Positions 6,406 through 52,592 of a stretch of DNA of 64,000 nucleotides are shown here, in pieces. A model generated the notes under the pieces. It did no database searches, was not told where the DNA came from, and saw only the letters and a program-made list of their open reading frames with translations. Positions within the stretch are counted from its first letter, which is position 1; each line of letters begins with the position of its first letter. Origin of the DNA: Sarea resinae (Eukaryota); contig JAPEUD010000003.1 in NCBI GenBank assembly GCA_026026165.1, positions 496,001 to 560,000 of the forward strand. Reading direction: 5' to 3'. The translations under genes and the position numbers were made by a program.

Positions 6406-8000
6406 CTAACACTCCGTGACGAAAAGACCAATCGGACTAGGGTTAAAGTCCTCCATGAACACCAGACTCGTGCCGTTGACGCTGCTCAACTCGAACGCGA
6501 CCGTCTCGCCCGCCGGACAGGCAAAATTGGAGATGCTGTACGCGTTGCCGGGACTCACGGTCGTGGCGCCGAAATCGGTCAAGACGGCTGGCGCATTGGC
6601 GGCATCGGTGGCGTTGGTGGCGGGCGACACGAGGCGGGCGAAGTCGATGGCGCCCGAGCCGGCCGAGCTGCCGCCGGAGAACGTGAACGAGGACGTGCTG
6701 AGCTGGGCTTGGGTCGGAAAGAGGAAGATCAGCGAGCAGGTGAGGTTGGCAACCGAGGCCGGGAAGTCGAAGTTGAAGATGCTGGATACCGTCGGCGTGA
6801 TGGTGCCGTTGAACGAGGTGCCTGCTGCGGTGTTGGGTGCCGAGGACGAGACGGGGATGATGAGGTGTGGGAATTGATAGGCCCCTGATAAAGAGGTCGG
6901 GCACGTTGTTGGGTGCGCCGTGCCGGTGGCGGCCGTGATCGTGGCCGTCTGCACCGAGGTCTCGACTGTTGAGGTCGAGGAGCCGGCGAGCGTTTCCGTT
7001 TCCGTTTGCGCTTCAGTCGCGGTGGTTTCGGCGCTGGTGACGACGCTGCCGATTGCTGACGAGGCGTGCGTCGAGGCAACTGATACGGTTTCTGTTTCGG
7101 TACGAGGCGCTGAGGTGGACGTCGTCTCTGCTTTGGTTGACGTTGTTCCGGCCTCGCTTGATGTTACTCCTGTCGCCGTCTCGGTTTGCGGCGCTTCGGT
7201 TGAAGTTGACCCAGCTTCGGTTGAGGTGACTCCAGCCTGACTTGAAGTGACTCCAGCCTGACTTGAAGTCACTTCAGCCTGAGTAGAGGTGACTCCAGCT
7301 TTAGTCGATGTTGAGCCTGACCCGGTCTCAGTCTGCGGAGCTGCAGTTGAAGTTGCCGTCACAGTCCGAGTCGAGTTCGAGAGATGGGTCTGTGTCGACG
7401 CCGTCCCTGTCGACGTGGAAGTTTGGGTCTCGGTCTGACCTGAAGCAGAGCCCTGCTGGCTTGTCGCCGTGGAAGAATGAGAACTCGATGCAGAAGTAGA
7501 AGAGCCACTGTTGAAACAGGAGCTAGCCGTCAGGGAGATCTGGACGCACATCGCATTGGGCTGCGACTGCGTGTAGATATTGTACTCTCCATTCTCGCCG
7601 GTGGGGCAAGCAAAGAATGTCGTGCTCCCTCCAGACTCCAGCTGGCCAGTGCTTGAAATGGAGAATCCACTCTGAGCTGGTAGCGCTCAGTATGTGATCT
7701 TCTGTGGAGAACAAAGGAGGTTATCTCACCAGGAGCTCCAGTATCACACTGAAATTGAGTCGTTGGCGACGTCAAGATGCATCCCTTGCCGTTCTGGTCT
7801 GTGATTGCTCCATTGAGAATGGTAAAGGTCGATTGGGTCAATCCCCCTCCGATACGGACTTGTCCGTCAGTCAGTTCACCAACAGTCCCAGACTCGCTGC
7901 CGGAAGCTGTGAGTTGGAAGGGGCAGCCTGTTGTCTGCCTACGTGTGACCGCAGCAGAAGCGCCTAGGCACAAGGCCAAAGAGAAAAGTCCGTGCTTCAT
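6406..8000 (-). CDS. Secreted/cell-wall Ser/Thr-rich protein with C-terminal But2-like domain
   Basis: Signal peptide MKHGLFSLALCLGASA, dibasic VTRR, N-domain GKGCILTSPTTQFQCD, one intron near 7680-7730, Thr-rich linker with TSSQAGV repeats, C-terminal YQFPHLIIPV..SSIFNFDFP..CSLIFLFP..FNPSPIGLFVTEC. Confidence 0.8.
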
Positions 8001-39649: not shown

Positions 39650-40876
39650 GCGCCCACATCTCACCCGCAGGCGGCGGGCGCATCCCTCACGCCATATCAA
39701 ACGCATCGGCGAAAATCGTCCCCCTTCGCTACCGGATAAAGACGGAAAAGACGGATCAAGCCGGAAATGCACCGCAAATTTCACATCTCACATCTGGTTC
39801 CTGGTTTCGGGGGGTGGACTGGCCGACCAACCGACCGCGTGCGCGGACTGCTGCGGGCTGCATGCACAGCTGCACTGCACGACCTAAGTGAGCAAGGTCG
39901 TTCCGGAGCCACTATCCCACAATCGAAAACCTTGTGAGCTGAGGCCACTTGCGCACATACTTTACACGCATACGTGTATCCCGCAAATCTGTTGTGTATC
40001 GGCGGTAGGCAAGAGATCAGATGCAGCCAGTCGTCAAGAGAAAAATCCCGATCTCGAGATCTAGAGTACATAAGACGAATGTACCAATCGATAAATTGCC
40101 GAGCCCTGGGGTCCGGAGTCCCTGCCGGGTTCCAAAGTGGTATGCGGATCCGAGGTGTCGAACACTTCGTGCCTCGAAAGAGCTCTGCTGCGTGTTTCAG
40201 GCTGACCAGGGCAGGGTACAGAAAATACTCTCGGAGAGATTTGCTGAGATACCTGTTTCGCTTGCCTGATCTGTTGCATGAATGAAGGGCGGAGAAGCTG
40301 CGGAGAAAAATTAGTTGCCGGCTTGACTGCTTGCGACGCCGATGCAGATGGACCTGTGAGAGAGCATGGAGAGAGAATCAAAAAAACAGCAAGGAGCATT
40401 GACAGTCTCTGTAATTTGTATTAGGGAGCTAGCGATATGTTCGTGAATTGATGATTGCCTTTTTCCTGCTTGATAACAAGCATAACAAGCTTCGAACGTC
40501 TAGTAAATAGGTAGTATAAAGAGTAGAGAGTAGGAAATCTATAGGTTTCGGTCAAAAACATGTTTAAAGACGTTCTCAATAGAGGTAGGATTTCTCGAGG
40601 ACATTACTAAGGACAAAGGTGTGTAGTTGAAAAGCAATGGAAACCGAAAAGCGAAAATATCCATCGCCATGGTGCGCTGATGTAGAACCCCGCCGCCGTC
40701 TATAGTTCGTTCGTGATGAGTTGAAATCATTAATACCGCTGCTGTATGACAAATGGAAAAAAAGACTCTCAAAAGCAACCTCTACAGATATGAACGCCCG
40801 AGAAACTCCCATAAGACCGGCTTGGGACGGGAAATTGATCAGAGGATCCAAACTCCCGAATGAGGGCCGGCGAATT

Positions 40877-42130
40877 CTAATATCGGTCACTCAGGTCACC
40901 GCCTGCGACCGAACCATTCGCTGAGGAGCTGCCGGACGAGAAACCGCTATTGACGTTGAGCAGGTCCTGCACAGCCACTTTCGGCACCTGCGGCACCGGC
41001 AATTTTCGCTGTGTTCCATCCGATCTCGACATGATCTCGCTGATTCTCAGACCCGACGAGGGCGACTGCTGATTCATCGACGGACTGTAAGTTTGCTGGC
41101 CGTCGGCTTGAGGCTCCATCGGCGCCAGAGCGGGGGTGTGCTGGAGAGAAAGATGGCGGATGCCCGGAAGATGAATCTCGTTCATACCGTAAGGCCTCAG
41201 TCTCGGTGAGTGCGCGGGAGTCGCAAGCGGAGTGTGATCGGGTGTTGGAGAGCAAGAGTCGTGCGAAAAGGTGGGCGAAGATGGAGCTGTGGACATGGGA
41301 GAGTTTGGTCTCGATCGCTTCGAGCGGTGCATCGGCTGATCTTCGTCCTCGTGCGAGTGAGAGCGCGACATTGGATGTGACGAGTAGGCATAAGCTGAAA
41401 GTGAGGGAAGCCGGCTACCCGTATGGTAACCGCCGTGGTGCGTATGCCTATGCGGCATGCTGTACATCGATGGGTGATCTTCCCGCTCCACTTGAGAAGC
41501 CGCAGTCGCGAGCAAGTTGATGTCGAGGGGATTCTGAAGACCGTTCGGACTGCCGCCGTTACTTCGACCGCCAAAGGGTCCCAAGGCCGAGGGCAGGTGG
41601 CTCGAGTATGCCGAGTACGAGTGAGGGGGCGAGACATTTGGTGACCCAACCTTGGAAACAGGCGCTGATCGAGAGATGGTCTTTGGTGGCGGTGGCATCA
41701 TCGAGGAAGAATCTGCGAGACCGCTCACCACGGCGGCTGCAGCGGCAACCTGTTGAGATTTGTTACTTCTTCTCGAGTTTGGGTTGTTGTGTATTCTGGA
41801 GTGCCTCGTCAACTCGTCCGATCGACTGAAGCGCTTGGTGCACCCTGGAAACTGGCACGCGTGAGGTTTTTCTCCAGTATGCGTTCTGATGTGTCGAGTT
41901 TGGTGCTCTAGACGATGGAATGCTTTGTCGCAGAGAGGACACTTGTAGGGTCGAGGCAGATCTTGTCGGTGGTCCTCGCCGCCCGGCTGAGCACCACCAA
42001 CGAGTGGCGGCAGTAGACTGACTGCGGCCGAAGCCATTTGATTTTCTTGAATTTCGCCGAAGGATGATGAGGATGGTTGTTGAGGATTCAGCAGATTAGA
42101 GAAATCTACTGCGGACGTTGCTCGTTGCAT
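40877..42130 (-). CDS. creA: Carbon catabolite repressor CreA/Cre1 (C2H2), intronless
   Basis: [16 protein letters not shown] start, two zinc fingers ([33 protein letters not shown]), poly-Ala, SHED motif, conserved [27 protein letters not shown]-terminal [10 protein letters not shown]. Confidence 0.97.
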
Positions 42131-42286
42131 GTGATGTTTGCACGCCGTTGGCGATGCGTGCGAGTGATGATCTTCGGAAAGGTTTTTGGTTGTATGACGA
42201 GGAAAAGATACCGAAATGGGGGTGTGGGAAAAACTTATAGCGACCGACCCACGCTTCGGAATGATGAGAGCGAGGGAGGGAAGGAT

Positions 42287-42303
42287 GGGGGGGGGGGGGG
42301 GGG
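42287..42303. repeat. G17 homopolymer in the creA upstream region
   Basis: Direct observation. Confidence 0.9.
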
Positions 42304-44335
42304 TGTTCGTAGTGGGACGGAGTACAGAAGAAAACGTGGGGAACGGGATTCGTGTAAGGTAAGGTAAGACAAGGTATGCGTGTGTATGGAAGTAGCCCTG
42401 GAGGTACTTTCGTAGGGTACCTAGCGTAGCGAACTGAGCGAAATGTGGGCGCAACTTGAGTTTAGACGGAGCCTTGTCAGAGCGCGACGAAGATCGGCCG
42501 GAAAGCCACTTGGAGTAGTAATAATCAGTCGTGCTTTCTTGTGCTCGTCCTTTTCCTGGTCCTGGTCCTGGAGGAGGGGGGGGTCGTGATGGCGATGGCG
42601 ATGGTGAAAGAAACTGGGGAAGAAAGAGGGGATCAGGGGTTATTATTCGTCGAGGTGCAACGAGTGTGATGTGAGAAGAAGAATGGTGCCGTGACTTTTC
42701 CTCTGTTTGATCTCTATCCGTGCTTTGACAGATTCTGCGCTCTTCCGGGGCCCAAGTCCCGTTGTGGTATGCGTGGTATGAGATGATGGTATGGTATGTA
42801 CGAGTCACTACTACGGGTACTCGCGAGTAAGGTACGAATACGTTGCGGTCGTCGTGAGCTGGTAGAGTCGAGTAGTGTAATAAGGTTGGCGATATGTCCC
42901 TCGGTCGTATGAAGTAGTACAGCAGCAGTCCGTCAGGTAGTCACTGGCCAGGTACCTCAGAGTCGTAGTCGTCCTCCAAGTGGTGGACGTAGTAGTAGTC
43001 GCAGTCGTGGTGCTATTGCCGATGAGCGATGGGTGTTGACTTGCGGTTAATCGGCGCAAGGGAACTTCGCTCGACCTCGTTCGGCGGTACCTCTCGCCTG
43101 CACCAAACAGACAAGTGTACGGATAGACAGGCACGGTCGGTGTTTCTTGATCGTAAAACCGATCTAGAGGATGAGAGGAAAGGATCAGAGATGAGATGAT
43201 GGGCTGAGACGCGAAAATCAACTGAGCTCAGCCAAGCTGAATCGACCCAAGCGAGAGTACAAGGTCGTCCTAGTACCGTGTGAGCCACCGAGGCCAGCAA
43301 ATCCGAGTACTCGAGGCCAGTAGTGGTGGTAGTAGTGGCCAGGTCGAGCCAGGGCTACTCGACTCCAAGGTCTCCAGTATGGGGCGCGTTTGATCTATAC
43401 AGGGCCCCGACTGCCCCGTCCACGGCACTCGACAAGATGACAGGGCGAAGAAAGCCGTGGAAGATGAATGAATTGTGGCTCGTTGCCGGCCAAGGGACGA
43501 TGAGTAAAGGCTGGGTACGGGGATCTTGGGCTTAGGTTGCTGGATCGAGTCTAGGGGGAAGAACCTTACAGCCCAAGTCGCGCGCGGAGACCACCGGGGT
43601 TCAGGTCTCGGCGGCCGGTACTCCAAGCATGGAATTTCGGAAGGGAGTGGTTAAAAATCTGTTAAAAGTCGCAACAGGAACAGCACTGCGTATGCTGACT
43701 GGACGGGGCTGGGCCGATTGCGGGTCAATCGGGAATAGGATCGAGGCGATGATTTCGGTCTGACTCCTTGCTGACTCGTTTGTTGCTGTTGCTGGACTGT
43801 CACTCACGCATTCAATGGGAAGTACCTTGCGGTCAGGTACGCTTCATCCGTGGCTGACGCCTTGTTATCATTACTGAGGAAGTGAGATGGGAGTGTGCTG
43901 GGCTTCCTTTCTTTCTTTCTTTCTTCCTCTCTGTCTCTATTTGCCAGTGATATGATGGCAGTCTGGTCTGTCGCAAGTACTATGTAAGAGCCCGATATTA
44001 TTGTCGATGGGACGAAGTTGCCGAGGCGGAAAAAGTGGATCGATTACTACGTGAATGAGTTGCCCGGAGTGCCGCCGCGGTCGTGGTCGTGGACTGCGTG
44101 GTAAATGATAGCTTCTGATGCCGATGCGGACGGTAAATCCTCTTGGTGGGGAATCGTTGGAGCGACTGACTGGGGCGATCGAGTGATTTCCGTGGTCTCC
44201 AGGGGGGATGCTGGTCGCTTCCCAGGATCAGATAGGCGCCCGTGGGGTGATAATCGGTTGATTGAGCCACGGATCCGACCGAGAAGACTTTCTTTGTACA
44301 GTACAGGCCAAGTCGGATACGATGTTGATGACGAC

Positions 44336-44384
44336 TGATGAATGATGAATGATGAATGATGATGATGATGATGATGATGATGAT
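44336..44384. repeat. (GAT)n/GAAT microsatellite
   Basis: Direct observation. Confidence 0.9.
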
Positions 44385-47300
44385 TACATATATTGCTCGT
44401 TCCTCCTGCCAAAGAATTGATGGTCACAAGAGATGGATTTCTTATCACTTTCAAAATGGGTTGGACTGGTGGCGCACACTGGTACGCACACTGGTGCGCA
44501 CACTGGTCCGAGTGACAGGAATCTGGCGATAAGCAATGGTAGCGTTGGAAGGTACCTGAGATGAGAATGTGATGATCTCACATGCTTACAGGATTTCACA
44601 CACGGAAAGGGGGGACTTCGGAAGCCTGGGAGGATGAAGAGCGACTTTAACCCTGCTGCTCGTTTCGCCTTCTCCTACTACGGAGTAGTCTTGAGGTCAA
44701 GACTTGAACAAGGCGTACTGCGCAGTAGCTACGTGCAATTTCAGGTGCGAAAGGGTGACACGACAGATGGTCAAGAGGGTGTCCTCTGGGGTTGTCTCTA
44801 AAGAGACATCTGGGGCTTGCTGAGGACGACAAGGTTTCTCCGCCGTCCGAATCAGACGCCTCTACGGGAGGCGGTGGGGGTTGTGCTGGGCTGGTCGCGT
44901 CAGGATGCGCCCAGGAATCGACAGGTTGGCAACGTGCAAGGGGGAGATGAAAATCCGTGGGGGAGTTATGTCGAGATTGGCTGCCATGGTCCCGTGTCAG
45001 CCTTAGGTGGTCAGGTACATCGAATCCAATCCATTCAGCTATTGTCCCTTGTGGGCGACAAGATCAGATCGGACCCTCGGACAGGACAATAAAAATGAAT
45101 GATTGCCACCAACCAACGAAAACAAGGACAGCTGCACAAGGACACCTTACTTTCGCAGCTTCGGTGAATCAGGGGTTCCCTACCGTATATACGAAGCGGT
45201 ACGGAGTAGTGAGGTACATCCGTAGTAAAACTCCGATGAGCATTGATATTGCGGGGGAAGGATGTTCAGGTAGTCAAACGATCTTTCGCTTTCGGGTAAA
45301 GGCCCCGTCATGTGTCACAGAGGACTTTAGGCAAGATCCGTACGAGTAAGAGGTCTGAAATGAAATGATATTGCGGAGAAGCCAATACCAGTGCATGTCT
45401 CAACTGGGCGTATGCCCGGTATGGTCGGTACGGAACGCAAGTACCTTCACAAAGGTGCGTGCCCAAATGCGGAGTCACAAAAGGACCATGGATCACATGT
45501 ATGGTCTCACATTCGATCAGGCATTGTTGTCGTTCTGCTCAATCCCAACAGGGCTCCTACCCCAACATAAAATCGGCTCTCCGGACCGGGCGCGGAGTAG
45601 TCGTAGGGGGGAAGACATGGAGGGGGGGCGTTATTTTCTCTTACATGCGAACAAACGCAGTGGATCTTCTCCTCGAGAGAGAGGATCTGGGCAAACGATA
45701 TGGCGTGATGCGGTCTAAATACGGCGTTCGATACGGTGTCCTGCGTCGTCGTGAGACCACAAACATCAGATGACGGAACTCCACAGAAGCGCTGCAAATG
45801 GCAAGGAAAAGAGGCAAGGCGAGGTACTTTCCCCGTCGCTACGTATTAATTGTCCTGTCCCTGCAGCAGCGTATGAGTGAGTTTTTACTTTTTTGCACAT
45901 CATGGCTGGACTCCAGGGCGACCGAGGTACGAAGTACATGATGGATGCGCCGACCTGTACAAACTCCGGAGTACAATTGGAGCACTGGGCTGGGCTCTCT
46001 TCTCCAGCGTTAGAGTACCCCAAGGTACTTCCCTGACTGCGCAGTACCTTAGAGTCCTTTAGAGTCCCTCTAGAGTCGAGCAATCTGTGCTCCGCAGAGT
46101 ACGGAGTACTTCGTACCTCCATTTGGTACCTTCATTTAGTACATGCATTCCCCAGCAAGCCACTGCTATGGCTGCCGACGGTGGACATGCCCACCTACGC
46201 TGTACGCTGTACGCAGCATCCATGGATGACACAGCCTGGAGGTCGGTCTCGGTAGAGCGGTCGGGACAAGTCGGGAAGCATCTACGGAGGAGGAGAAAGC
46301 TGCACCCCTCGAAATGGCAAAGATGATCTGCCGCGGATATTCGCTAGTCCGGCTTCTGAAAGCGCCTACTTCGAGTACGAATTCTCCGACCGAGTCTGGA
46401 CTGTTTGATGAAGATCGTTCATTACTATTTTCCGGCGAGACTAAAATTTCGCCGAGATTGCGAGACGTCCTTGCGCCGTACTTCCACCATCTCGTCGGAA
46501 TTAAGCATCGATAGCAACAGCAGCGACGACGGCATCAGCAGCACGATAAGGTACCTCGAGGCTCGTGCAAAAGGCCGGCAAAGGAGAGCAAATCACAGGG
46601 AGATTGGCACGAAAGGGACGGTGGCATTGCCATCCGACTTGGAGACGCTTGGAGAGACAATCAGACCGGAACCTTGGAACGTTGTCTCTGTAGGTTTCAT
46701 TTGGTGGAATGGGTGATGAGTGATGATGCATCGACCGATCGATCGATCGATTAATCAAGCACCTCAGTCAATCAATCAATCAATCAATCAATCAATACGT
46801 TCCGTTCCGTACATGGACGAAATGCAACGAATTGAAGTTCAGTCCAACTTGGATTGTCATCGACATCTTAGGTAGAGTTTGGTCGATAAGGACAACAACC
46901 ACCAAATACTCTACTCCGTACTCGATCGAGTACTGTTGTGTTGGATGGTTGGATCCATGGATGTACCGTATCCATGGCTCATTGATGGATCATCTCTTCG
47001 TTCTTCCGAATTTCTATTCTTGCCGGCCATGTTGTTCCGAGCACCCCTGGCCCTTCTGCTGACTAACCTGGCGTGACTGGGCTCAAGCCACCGACTCCCG
47101 TCAGTGACTCAGATTCGCCACCGCAACTTGCGCCAACGGCAGCCCCCAGGGCCCAGGCACGTCAATTTCCAACCCTCTCACCCTCCGCCCTCCGCCCTCC
47201 GCCCTCTCGCCGTCTCTCTGCATCGTCTCATCTCCTGGTCCCCCATCCCACGCGGGCCCTTATCGCCAGCTTGTTCATTCTCGCTCTTCCCCATACATAC

Positions 47301-49764
47301 GTCAGTCAGCGCACACGGGCCCTAACTCTCAAGGGGCATGGCTGGGGAAGAGCGCTAAAGTCCAATATTCTACCCCCCGCGCCCCCCATCCCACGTTCCT
47401 TGACCTGATTCGGCAGGTCATCGACATACTCGTACTTCCCCCATACATTCCTAGCTGACGATCAATCCGGGGCTCCACACCCATGGTTGCACCTGCAAGC
47501 TACTGCGCAGGAGAGGACAGTTGTACCCCAAGTGCGACCCGACATCTTCTTCCGCTCGTCCTATCACTCGGTCCAGCCCACCAATAGAGACAGCCCGGTT
47601 CAACCGAGAATCTGGTTGACCTTCCCTCCGCATCTCGCACTGCTGCAAGGGACCATCTTTCGTCACTCATTCGACACAGGGTTCTCCACATGGAATGTCC
47701 AAGTCTGGAGCAATTCCTCCCCGCTGTCCTTCTTCGGCCATGAGCATTTCCCATTCGTCGTCTCAGGAATCCCATCTATTGACCGACGTCCGTTTTAGAT
47801 CACCGGGCTGACGTCTGCAGGATTCGTTGAGACATGTTGATCGTTGGGTTTTCTGAGCCGTCTCCTTATTGGGCTGTCTACCTGCTCCATACGGAGCCTT
47901 AAGCGAAAAAGCGTGGAGGGCCTTGCATGATTTGCATCATACGTGTCGGCAGCATCAGTTCATGGCCTCATTTTCGGAGCAACTTCCTGTCGAATGGCAG
48001 TTGCTATGCCTGTCTATATTATTTCACTTGTTTATGATCACTGCAGAGCTAAAATTTATGTGGCTTTTCCTGTCTTGCTTTATTCGAAAAGGGGTGATTC
48101 CCCGCTCACATCAGAACTAACTCCTCGCTCGACGAGAACGAGAGAACTTCTTCGCGAGTTCTCTACGTCATGTCTTGAAATTAAAGACTACCACCACCAA
48201 TTAATCGATTAGGCGTATTTGTCTATTTAGACCGATTTGCTTTCACTCCTTTAGGCCCACGCATACCCGTTGAATAGCAAGTCAAACAGAAGCAAAAGGT
48301 AATACTAAGGTCATACAATACTAACCGCCATCGTCTCCTTTCGACCTTCGTTTCTGTCATATCCCTAGCTCAGACGAAGCTTGAAGCTTCATATCCATCC
48401 TGACAATGGCGCATCCATCCATCCGCTCATCCATCCTCAGCATGTCAGCGGACCTCGTCATTATCGGCCACAAATAATAGCACCGCTGGCGTGGCAAGGT
48501 ACGGCACGGAACGGTATGGCATGGCATAGCACGATATGAAATCCTCAATTCTAGAACGGCTCGTCTGTTCCACTCTGGAGGGTTGATCATCTGTGGCTTT
48601 GCCACGCAACTCAATTTAATCCACGACATCGTCTGCTTCTTCTTCTCTCCCCTCTCTCCTTTCCATTATCATATCTCCTATCCTTGGCCCGCACGACTGA
48701 CTCAGCCAGCCAGAGAGTCGTTTAATCCAGTCTAATACAATCCAAGCCGGTACCATCACCATCACCATCACCATCACTATCGCCATCGCCATTCTCCTCC
48801 CCCCTCCCCCCCCTCCCCTTCCCCTTTTTCCTTTCCAATTTCTGTAAGGTCCAGTAAATAGGCAAACCTGTTCCTACGTGCGCCAAAAAAAAAAAAGACT
48901 ACTATACCGCGACTCATCCGGGCGATGCCAATTTGCCTAGTAAATAGCAGCGCACCTCACGAATTCCCGTTTCCAGTAAGTAACCACAAGCCACGCAACC
49001 GAATAGAATGGCAACGAAACAGACCGGAATGCAGCGTCATGGGTATCTAGATTATTACTACCCAAATCCGACCCAATGATATCATCTTATTTCATGTTCT
49101 ATTCTATTATCTCATCTTCTATTCTATTCTATGATATGATAATATTGCATCCTCTGATCCCCATTTTCTTTGATCTCTCACTCTCCTCTCCCCCCACTCT
49201 GCCGGCGGAGGCCGTGTTTGATTGGCCGGATAGTGGTAAGCAGAGCTGAGCTGAGTTAGTTGAGTTGATTTGAGTAGAGTTGAGTGGAGTTGAGTGCATG
49301 AAATCGAGTAGGCCATGCTGACCATCCCTGAAACATGCTCCGAGGGAGAGAACCAAAAGAAGAAGGGCTTGGAGCGGAAAGGATATCGGGGTTTGGGAAC
49401 CGAGAAAACAGGGACAAAAGGGGAGGGGAGGGGAAAGGGGGAAAGATAGAAGAAGTGTGTTTATGTGATTATAGTCTTGGTTTGCAGCATCTGCCTTTTA
49501 GTATTGGGGTTGGGGACAGAAAAAGTTTGTTTATCTATCTATCTAACCAGCTCGTCAGGTAGCCAGCTAGCCCGGACAAAGATCACGTATATCAGCCTCT
49601 TCTACTGCCCTCCTCGATTGATTGAATTATTTTTTCTGCTACTCTACTCTACTCTACCGCACGCATGCATTGTCTCTATTTCAGGTCCGGCAGGGGAAGA
49701 AGCACTGGTGAGCTGGCTGACCAACTAATTAATCAGCCATCTACCTCCCCACCTTTCTTAGGCA

Positions 49765-51864
49765 TTACTTCCACCCACCATTGTACACGCGGCCGTGACG
49801 ATCGGGCTCCGAGTAGCTGGCTGTCGCGCACCAGGGATCCTCGGTCGCGCTGTAGGGCGTCAGAGGTAGGGAATACGGCATGCGAAATCCGACAACCGTT
49901 TTTGCCCGTCGGATGGGTTGGGCTGCGATTGTGGCGTCAGCGGCAGTAGTATTACCGACCCCCTTTCCTTCAGCCTCAGAGTCGGTCTCTGGCTTAGTCT
50001 CCGACTCGGCGTGAGACCGATCAGGTAGATCCCGTCCAAAGACAGGCACCATCTCCATTTCTTGCTCCATAGACCCGACCCCGTCGCTTTTATCTTCCGC
50101 AAATAGAGCAGGCCAGACCACAACGCCGATCTCCCAGCTGCAGATCCGGACTTCGTGGCCTCCATAGGCTGGCGGCGCGGCGCCCCAAGCTTGCGTCGAG
50201 AGATTGGCGGATGTGACTAGGGCCCAGTCGATTTGCGTCATGGAGGGTGAGGTGAAGCGAACGTAGGTTTTGATGTGGGGTGCTGCGAGAGATCTATGTG
50301 CTTCGCGACGGTGGACCTCGGTGGTGTTGTCTGACGGAGAATGAGAGGAAGAAGAGGAGCTGGTCCAGTGGCGGAGAAGAGGACGTAGGTAGGCCACTTG
50401 TTTTGCCTGCGCTGCGGTTTGAATCTTGGTGTGGATAGAGGTGCCGGAGGAGTAGCCATCTAAGGACTCTCGAATTTCGTGGGCCGTGGGGAAGATGATG
50501 TGGTGTTGTGGGGACGCAGTATCCTTGATTGAGCCCGTGGCAGGTGCTAGGGCCGAAAAGAGAGCGTTGGTCAACCAGGAGGAAGTCTGGCCGAGGGTTG
50601 CGATCGAAGAGACCTTTTGGTGACAATTCAGCTCTGACATGGAGACCAAGAGAGATATAGCGGGAGACTAGTTACCTGTGTGACGATCTGTGAACGTTCG
50701 TTCTGCAGCGTATCTTTCGTAGGGATAGAACTGAGAACCTCTCTCAAGCCTGGCCAGCCCCAAAGCGTCTTGCCTTCGGCTCGAGCTTCTCGAGCATCCT
50801 GTCGACAAGGTATACTTCCCACGATGGCAGCTTTGATCTCGCTGAAATCGAATCGGACAATCTCTTTTGTTAGAGATCCCGTTTTACTTTGGCCGTAGGC
50901 TCGGAGATATGAAAGTAGATCTTGCTTGAACCTCTCTCCAGACCCGAAAGGAGGCTTAGTTTGATTGACAAGGGGTTGGCCATATTCCAACTCTTTATCG
51001 GGTAGGAGAGGTAGCAATGGAGATCGCCATACCGCCTGCGTCATGTTTGTCCAGTCTTTAGGGATCATGTTGGCTGTATGAATAACAATCCTTGAAAGAT
51101 TCAGTATTGATTAGCCGTGAAGAGCAAGTAAACGTACTGTGCGTATCCGTCATGGCGGAGCAAGACCATCATTTTCGTGTGATGTGTCCCAAAAGGCTCG
51201 GGCATATATGCTGTTACCGGCTTGACATTCGGAAAGCGTCTGCAGGCATCCTACAGTTGAAGTTTAGCTGGACTATAGGGTATATTGAAGCGAGATTAAG
51301 CTTCCTACCTCAAGATAGATCCGCAGAGAGTCCTCCTTCTTCCACGCTCCATGTACAATCTTGACTTGGACCAGACCGCGGACATCTTCGTCGAAAGCAT
51401 CCCTATATCGTACAAAGTCAGCTATGCTTTGCCAATACTTGTCGAAAAACAGACATTAAAAAGTCCACATCATATAGATAATTGAACTGCCAGCATTCCT
51501 TAATTAGAGGATCTCCGATGATATCTGAGAGGCTTATCGTATCGACGTTGCTGGAGGGCGGAAGATCTCTGATACGGGTGAGCTGTATTGGTGAGGGAAC
51601 TAGCCTGATTTTAGGGCCATGAAGGACTGGGGCTTCGATCTGCTCAAAGTGTTGTTGGATGCTCTGCTCGATTGCCTGCCCGGATCCTAGCTGACCAGGC
51701 ACCACGCCTTTCTGTGGGCAAGTGCCTCGAAGTGGGGGAGTGATCGAGCGACTCAGTGATTCTAGCAGCATTTCATCCCTGAAGCCTAGTTTGGAGTCCT
51801 CTTGTACGTCTAATTTGCGTCTTTTGGCTGAATTTGGCAGCTCGATTTCGCGTTCTTTATCCAT
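49765..51864 (-). CDS. TDP1: Tyrosyl-DNA phosphodiesterase 1
   Basis: PSPIQLTRIRDL, WQFNYLYDVDFLM, catalytic FGTHHTKMMVL and AAPHIKTY..SANLSTQAWG; multi-exon; alternative start at 51891. Confidence 0.93.
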
Positions 51865-52592
51865 GTTTGGCCGTCCAACGCACAGGATCATGAGCTAAAC
51901 ATCTCCGAATTGGATATTGGGACCGAAAAATTGTGATACGCTAGAAACCTTTTAGGAAATAAATCGTATGGCGAAGGCCCGTAATTATACTGAGGTAGGC
52001 GAACGCTCATGCAAGATGATACAGTGAGAACGTAGCATTCATACGCAATTGGACCTGAAAACTTTCGACTCGCGACTAAGCTAGCATGTATGAGCTTATG
52101 ATCCAATTTCAATCCGCGTCTAGAGTCCGTTCTCTAGTCGGAGGCTGATCAGAATCAGGATTGTATCCTCTCCATTTCTAGGAATATCAATGTTCAACAA
52201 CAGCTCTTATAGCCACATACCTCGAATTGGTTACCTTTGAATAAGATATGGATAGAAGGTCAGACTTTCCGCCCACGGCAGTACCAGTCAACACTCCTGA
52301 GTATTCTATCGAGGTACATAAAAGGCGCCGTCGGTCGTGGAAGGCATTATTACCTATGGATACCTAAGAGGAATGGTGTTGATTATTGACTTGTGGGGTT
52401 GGCGGCGGATCATATCTAATCTTTAGATCTTATCTACAGCCCGACGATCGCATCGCAGATCTAGAACATCACGTTCCGATGGATGGATGCCATCCATGAA
52501 TCTTCTTGCCATATGAATCTACAGTCTTTTCAAACAGGTACGAAAACAGTTCCCCAGAGTTTCCAAGACCATGATATCTAACTTTGGGAAGT

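Follow-up and report, generated by a model that had tools for sequence, protein, structure and literature searches.

Upstream AUG codons (uAUGs) are depleted from eukaryotic leaders in general. Here we describe such a depletion in the region upstream of the carbon catabolite repressor gene creA, within a 64,000-nucleotide stretch of DNA from Sarea resinae (contig JAPEUD010000003.1 of assembly GCA_026026165.1, positions 496,001 to 560,000; hereafter the window, whose own coordinates are used throughout). The creA region shares with the general case a loss of ATG just upstream of the start codon that is specific to one strand, with antisense ATG and the other trinucleotides near expectation. It differs in scale, with 0.5–1.5 kb free of AUG, and in being conserved within one gene family.

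Several described systems come close to this arrangement. In Neurospora and Cryptococcus, leaders are characterized in the available part of Wallace et al. 2020 (PMC7049704) as 'long and AUG-rich', their weak AUGs being leaky. Like the dual-start genes presented there, creA has a first AUG in weak context and, further downstream in frame, a better one, with no AUG between the two. Most of those examples set dual localization, whereas the variable part of CreA would be its first 23–67 residues; creA is not named in the part of the paper that was available. CreA does figure, in the accessible sections of Noble and Andrianopoulos 2013 (PMC3730340), among the fungal regulators that have conserved large upstream regions and conserved positions of polypyrimidine tracts, and the creA gene of the window likewise has an upstream region of approximately 7.6 kb and CT tracts. 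Those sections treat the CreA upstream region mainly as regulatory DNA and mention neither ATG or AUG depletion nor any upstream open reading frame (uORF); within the main text as available, the term 'uorf' occurs 0 times, 'atg' 0 times and 'aug' once. The same sections present the developmental regulators stuA and brlA, which, like creA, are master regulators with long leaders and very large upstream regions. However, the stuA and brlA leaders carry regulatory uORFs, whereas the creA leader has none.

An ATG-free interval upstream of creA

In the window, creA is a single open reading frame (ORF) of 417 amino acids on the minus strand (40877..42130). CreA homologues match this ORF with E values down to 6.6e-181 and with 61–75% identity over 90–100% of the query. 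The closest database relatives are CreA proteins that are 70–75% identical, under names including Pycnora, Xylona and Piccolia; labels among the homologues read 'DNA-binding protein creA' (many Aspergillus and Penicillium entries) or 'Carbon catabolite repressor A', and these proteins carry PF00096/PF13465. The ORF encodes two adjacent C2H2 zinc fingers with an RPYKCP...HTGEKPH core, and the finger columns are invariant in an alignment of 22 CreA sequences. The gene is creA/cre1, encoding the Mig1-type C2H2 carbon catabolite repressor.

Directly upstream, the sense strand contains no ATG for 1,497 nt (42131..43627, minus strand). An earlier note on this DNA, made by reading the letters, had reported that the plus strand, on which a sense ATG reads as CAT, lacks CAT from 42131 to 43627 and that the next one follows at 43628. 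Counting bore this out, the other flank being the creA start codon itself (CAT at 42128). The note had also called plus-strand ATGs frequent in this interval, and 35 were counted. The CAT gap upstream of creA, 1,500 nt, is the longest of the 64-kb window, the second-longest measuring 946 nt; for ATG on the plus strand, the longest gap in the window is only 484 nt.

A first-order Markov model predicts 10.1 CAT in the interval, against 0 observed. In 20,000 dinucleotide-preserving shuffles of the same sequence, the mean count was 10.07 (s.d. 2.63) and the minimum 1; three or fewer occurred in 56 shuffles and zero in none, so that the absence of ATG, which might have been a common outcome of shuffling, was not. 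Nor is any other of the 64 trinucleotides as strongly depleted there as CAT. The caveat raised in the earlier note, that a G-poor sense strand lowers the expected ATG count, is valid in that the sense strand is 31–42% C and 12–25% G (per 250-nt bin for G), and this bias is already absorbed by the shuffles. With positions counted upstream from the creA start codon, the first sense ATG lies at −1500, where it opens a 9-codon uORF in weak context (43601..43630, minus strand) and sets the outer limit of the ATG-free zone.

Upstream of this limit, the next stretch on the minus strand (43631–45130, that is, −1500 to −3000) holds just ten sense ATGs, all opening short uORFs. These are 1–12 codons long, with one exception of 41, and two consist of an ATG followed immediately by a stop. 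The sense-strand excess of C persists upstream to about −2900. A microsatellite of ATGA/ATG units on the plus strand (44330–44390), which appears as CAT repeats on the creA strand, closes a second ATG-poor stretch upstream.

ATG depletion across lineages

We retrieved creA loci of other lineages from metagenome contigs using the 22-protein CreA alignment; we confirmed 296 among 583 pattern matches and retained the 80 best. The start codon was assignable in 79 of the 80 (L057 was without its N terminus). At ≥90% identity of the coding sequence (CDS) these loci represent 52 clusters, plus the window, and one locus per cluster entered the depletion profile.

Sense ATG was strongly depleted close to the gene. 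In 100-nt bins, the ratio of observed to expected counts was 0.04–0.35 from −1 to −700, rose to 0.59–0.76 between −700 and −1100, and stayed near 1 further upstream. The corresponding ratios for antisense CAT were 0.91–1.07 (the first bin alone, 0.62), 0.84–1.17 and about 1; over all bins save the first they spanned 0.84–1.19. In the segments of up to 700 nt before the start, which amount to 25,165 nt from 42 lineages, we counted 37 ATGs against 184.7 expected, a ratio of 0.20. Sense ATG was the sole outlier of the 64 trinucleotides in these segments, the next-lowest standing at 0.81. By contrast, 22 distal segments (−3000..−1500) contained 592 ATGs against 596.5 expected. ATG is thus removed but CAT is not, from the same DNA and therefore on one strand only, which argues that the constraint acts on RNA.

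The same asymmetry is seen in individual loci. Among 29 representatives with at least 1,000 nt upstream, the ATG-free distance had a median of 690 nt and a maximum of 1,301 nt, reaching at least 500 nt in 18 and at least 1,000 nt in 6; for antisense CAT, the median was 69 nt and 500 nt was never reached. An empirical null came from the remaining flanking DNA of these loci, which, with the 2 kb upstream of creA set aside, amounts to 275,066 nt; both strands were read. Of the 9,963 ATG-to-ATG gaps in this set, 3 were at least 500 nt long and none reached 600 nt.

The upstream DNA itself is not shared. Counting the window, 30 loci have 1 kb or more of upstream sequence, and they form 24 groups that are mutually non-alignable over −1000..−31, and at least 500 nt are free of ATG in 14 of these 24 groups. 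When compared with the other leaders by blastn, the window leader gave low-complexity matches only. What is conserved is the absence of AUG and not the leader sequence.

These data bear on two alternatives, namely that the gap is an artefact of chance or composition, or that the interval is mostly intron. The G-poor sense strand does lower the ATG expectation, and the other long CAT gap of the window (946 nt, 6603→7549) is merely a Ser/Thr-rich coding region: it corresponds to a 381-amino-acid ORF on the minus strand (6406–7551) with no internal Met and no out-of-frame ATG, which is low-complexity coding sequence, not leader. However, neither the shuffles (0 of 20,000 with zero) nor the null gaps (0 of 9,963 at ≥600 nt) reproduced the absence, which moreover recurs in independent lineages. 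For an intron, a scan with the pattern GTRNGY ... CTRAY ... YAG, which detects consensus introns only, gave no candidates in 1.6 kb, and a purge of AUG would not be expected of an intron. We consider both versions highly improbable.

One sequence element does recur next to the start codon in part of the sample. In a large subset of lineages (including L019, L020, L038, L049, L059, L073 and L075), every position is conserved in a block of approximately 18–20 nt directly 5′ of the creA ATG, a block that is absent from the window. The block shows no third-position wobble, which points to an RNA or DNA element rather than to coding sequence.

Two in-frame start codons

The first AUG of creA (M1, 42130..42128) lies in the context catcacATGC (42127..42136, minus strand), a weak Kozak context with C at −3 and C at +4; a good initiation context is marked by a purine at −3, according to the available part of PMC7049704. 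Each of the two C residues was found in 51 of 52 lineages, with positions −1 and −2 variable. Codons 2 and 3 vary synonymously (CAA/CAG; CGA/CGC/CGT/CGG), which shows M1 itself to be translated.

The second in-frame AUG of the window (M2, residue 32; 42035..42037, minus strand) has C at −3 and G at +4 and precedes the zinc-finger motif by 28 residues, and no ATG occurs in any frame between M1 and M2. Across lineages, the M1/M2 analysis covers 52 of 53 representatives; in the one left out, the zinc-finger string could not be located. The first Met downstream of M1 in the same frame lies at residue 24–68 (median 44) and always 20–36 residues before RPYKCP. Its context is marked by a purine at −3 in 39 of 52 and by G at +4 in 46 of 52. 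Between M1 and M2 there is a single out-of-frame ATG in the whole set, compared with 28.5 expected, whereas an equal length after M2 has 41 compared with 75.4 expected. A weak but conserved M1, no intervening AUG and an M2 in better context together make up the sequence signature of leaky scanning, by which CreA is probably made in two proteoforms, one long and one short. Gene callers often begin CreA at the second Met, and the database protein predicted from this same genome (P0001) is an example: it has 386 amino acids, 93% of the 417-amino-acid ORF, and begins at the second in-frame Met.

Open frame upstream of M1

The earlier note had added that an AUG-free leader would favour initiation at near-cognate codons. 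In the window, no stop interrupts the creA frame for 270 codons upstream of M1 (42131–42943, minus strand); this amounts to 813 nt, while the two alternative frames stay open for 334 and 107 nt, and in-frame CTG, GTG, TTG and ACG codons occur within the open stretch. The interval could accordingly be read as encoding an N-terminal extension of CreA that begins at a near-cognate codon. This openness is not conserved, however: only 11 of 30 loci had frame 0 as their most open frame, a share at chance level, the median open lengths across the three frames being 28.5, 25 and 31.5 codons, and in four loci (L034, L054, L068 and L076) an in-frame stop lies within 10 codons of M1. In addition, the translated stretch resembles non-coding sequence, and ATG would not be missing from all three frames of a coding region. 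We therefore rejected a conserved N-terminal extension from a near-cognate start, as upstream openness in frame is not kept among orthologues, and hold it to be most improbable that the interval encodes an extension. The 270-codon open stretch is lineage-specific.

The leaders show no purging of near-cognate codons, with ratios of observed to expected counts of 1.30 for CTG and 1.17 for TTG. Initiation at upstream near-cognate codons is possible on this basis, and the suggestion that it is favoured found no support in the form of a conserved extension.

Composition and predicted folding of the interval

The interval is marked by CT-rich tracts on the creA strand. Closest to the gene, such sequence lies between −69 and −219 (including 42255..42349, minus strand) and contains a homopolymer of 17 C (C17; −173..−157, 42287..42303, minus strand), seen as a G run on the plus strand. 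Further tracts lie at −515..−464 (42594..42645), −1074..−1025 (43155..43204) and −1342..−1304 (43434..43472), all on the minus strand. Transcription in fungi often starts at or after CT tracts, and the last of these is a candidate for a distal transcription start.

Predicted folding of the leader is weak. In the two proximal 500-nt blocks of the window leader, the mean minimum free energy (MFE) per 100 nt was −13.6 and −17.8 kcal/mol on the sense strand, compared with −23.5 and −26.1 on the antisense strand. A similar picture emerged from 22 other loci, where mean MFE per 100 nt was −17.1 for the sense leader, −24.7 for its antisense, −22.9 for distal sequence and −21.8 for the CDS. In all 22 loci the sense leader was predicted to fold more weakly than its antisense, and the comparisons with distal sequence (19 loci) and with the CDS (18 loci) mostly went the same way.

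A long, pyrimidine-rich leader with weak predicted structure and a C17 run might also suit cap-independent internal entry of ribosomes through its pyrimidine-rich tracts, in place of scanning from end to end. Long leaders with cap-independent translation are described for starvation and invasive-growth genes of yeast. Yet internal entry near the start codon would make the purging of far-upstream AUGs needless, whereas the depletion runs evenly from −1 out to −700 or beyond. Nor do the other leaders have a conserved sequence or structure element in common with that of the window, and a comparison with Rfam families gave no match within 40000–50000. We consider internal entry very unlikely.

A cluster of CreA-binding sites, as for autoregulation, was tried as an explanation of the interval and rejected, the counts of SYGGRG matching those in dinucleotide shuffles. 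The window has 7 such sites on the antisense strand against a shuffle mean of 7.9, and the 30 loci together have 119 against 120.7.

Transcription and extent of the proposed leader

Together, these observations led us to propose that the interval is wholly or largely the transcribed 5′ leader of the creA mRNA, kept free of AUG by purifying selection, a reading to which we assign a probability of roughly 0.65 on the strength of the sequence comparisons. The earlier note had proposed a very long, scanned leader under selection against uAUGs, with transcription beginning as far upstream as about 43600. Its core is strongly supported by the comparison, in which the depletion is confined to the sense strand and recurs in dozens of lineages with non-alignable upstream DNA. 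The extent to about 43600 is less secure, as depletion elsewhere mostly fades between −700 and −1100.

Several points weigh against our proposal. The sampled lineages are related, so their counts are not fully independent. As the depletion in other lineages is largely over by −700 to −1100, the outermost third of the interval in the window may not be leader; there, the block −1500..−1001 folds like ordinary sequence, with a mean MFE of −25.5 per 100 nt. Individual loci also depart from the pattern. A proximal upstream ATG is present in L076 (−53), L070 (−87), L016 (−90), L046 (−157) and L025 (−180), the last being the sole ATG within 1.5 kb in that locus, and L070 is without clear depletion, having 10 ATGs in 1 kb for 12.5 expected. 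The boundary of the C>G skew, which we tried as a proxy for the transcription start, lies at a median of 1,177 nt upstream, and the extent of the skew is uncorrelated with the ATG-free distance (rho 0.10, n = 23). Moreover, a TATAAG at about −109 (42234..42239, minus strand) is a possible TATA box for a proximal start and could drive a transcript with a short leader; it differs from TATAWA, which is absent from the 3 kb upstream of creA.

The available transcript data belong with these points. The only RNA run found consists of metatranscriptome contigs of a close relative (0.09 word share), which cover 40401–41082 and 44733–45110 and include none in 42131–43627; this coverage says nothing either way on transcription of the interval. 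Metagenome contigs of 1.2–2.8 kb that contain creA alone have no poly(A) ends, and one of them is collinear with a genomic relative without a gap, which gives no splice evidence. For A. nidulans, a 'tight' major transcription start of creA is listed at chrI 966171 for a gene model at 965719–967720 (PMC4046813). That study's listing was confined to starts lying no more than 500 bp from gene ends, and its table does not hold the position of the ATG, so no leader length for A. nidulans creA is derivable from it.

The metatranscriptome contig at 44733–45110 (378 nt, 6 differences) lies 2.6–3.0 kb upstream of creA, where there is no Pfam-recognizable ORF. It may lie on either strand and could stem from an unannotated gene, from non-coding transcription or from a far-upstream isoform of creA.

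If the proposal holds only in part, the proximal 400–1,000 nt or so would be the selected leader and the distal part would be promoter, where the lack of ATG would reflect chance and G-poor composition. The weakening of depletion across lineages after −700, and its disappearance by about −1100, fit such a division. So do the ordinary predicted folding of the window between −1500 and −1001 (−25.5 per 100 nt) and its higher G content (23–25%). In addition, only about 4.8 of the 10.4 ATGs expected in 1,500 nt fall in −1500..−1001, with 5.6 in the first 1,000 nt, and the probability of finding none there is near 0.008, unlikely but not extreme. On the other hand, the C excess and low ATG density of the window extend well past −1500, with only ten ATGs from −1500 to −3000. 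The ATG-free distance exceeds 1 kb in 6 of 29 other lineages, up to 1,301 nt, and the CT tracts at −1025..−1074 and −1304..−1342 are plausible distal start regions. We regard the purely proximal leader as a minority possibility, clearly less probable than a leader that spans all or most of the interval, and well ahead of internal entry. Similarly, there is a limited chance that the distal third is promoter or is confined to a minor long isoform; in the latter case, the full 1,497 nt would be the leader of the longest isoform of the creA mRNA.

Genomic neighbourhood

The nearest Pfam-recognizable gene upstream of creA encodes a tyrosyl-DNA phosphodiesterase (Tdp1). It lies in tandem with creA on the minus strand (49768..51894) in at least three exon pieces, matching PF06087 with E values of 3.4e-62, 3.7e-39 and 2.7e-14. 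The approximately 7.6 kb in between hold no recognizable gene, and eight other ORFs tested between and around creA and Tdp1 had no Pfam match.

Discussion

On our reading of the interval as a scanned leader, pre-initiation complexes would bind at the cap and have to scan between several hundred and about 1,500 nt before reaching creA. An upstream AUG would divert complexes into a uORF, so that less CreA would be made and the mRNA would become liable to nonsense-mediated decay, and it is for these reasons that selection would have removed upstream AUGs. A leader that is rich in C and U, poor in G and weakly folding by prediction would suit scanning over such distances. Scanning complexes would then meet M1 in its conserved weak context, with C at −3. 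Those passing M1 would traverse approximately 90–200 nt of coding sequence without AUG in any frame and arrive at the conserved in-frame M2 in better context, such that leaky scanning at M1 and M2 would give rise to long and short CreA proteoforms.

This suggests a broader, more tentative model for the filamentous ascomycetes sampled, one that we consider somewhat less likely than not. The creA mRNA would be a runway with a single AUG, comprising an AUG-free, C-rich and weakly structured leader of 0.5–1.5 kb, a weak M1 with C at −3, an AUG-free stretch of N-terminal coding sequence and a stronger, conserved M2. Translation, and not just transcription, would set both the amount of CreA and the ratio of its proteoforms, and the kilobase-scale leader would tie CreA output to scanning capacity or the energy state of the cell.

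The proposed creA leader would belong with AUG-depleted, scanned leaders, among which it stands out by its length, by being conserved in a single master regulator and by its weak-first-AUG design. A literature search, whose reach did not extend to older papers on creA transcripts, found no description of an AUG-free creA or cre1 leader or of dual initiation. In the available main text of a 2017 review of carbon catabolite repression (PMC5795998), the word 'translation' is absent.

CreA/Cre1 is the central switch of carbon catabolite repression in filamentous fungi and a main engineering target for enzyme production. Promoter swaps and constructs built with '1 kb of 5′ flank' probably disturb a functional leader. 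A conserved, kilobase-scale AUG-free leader in combination with a weak first AUG would point to translational control of CreA and, if true, the setting of CreA by translation would constitute an unrecognized layer of carbon catabolite repression.

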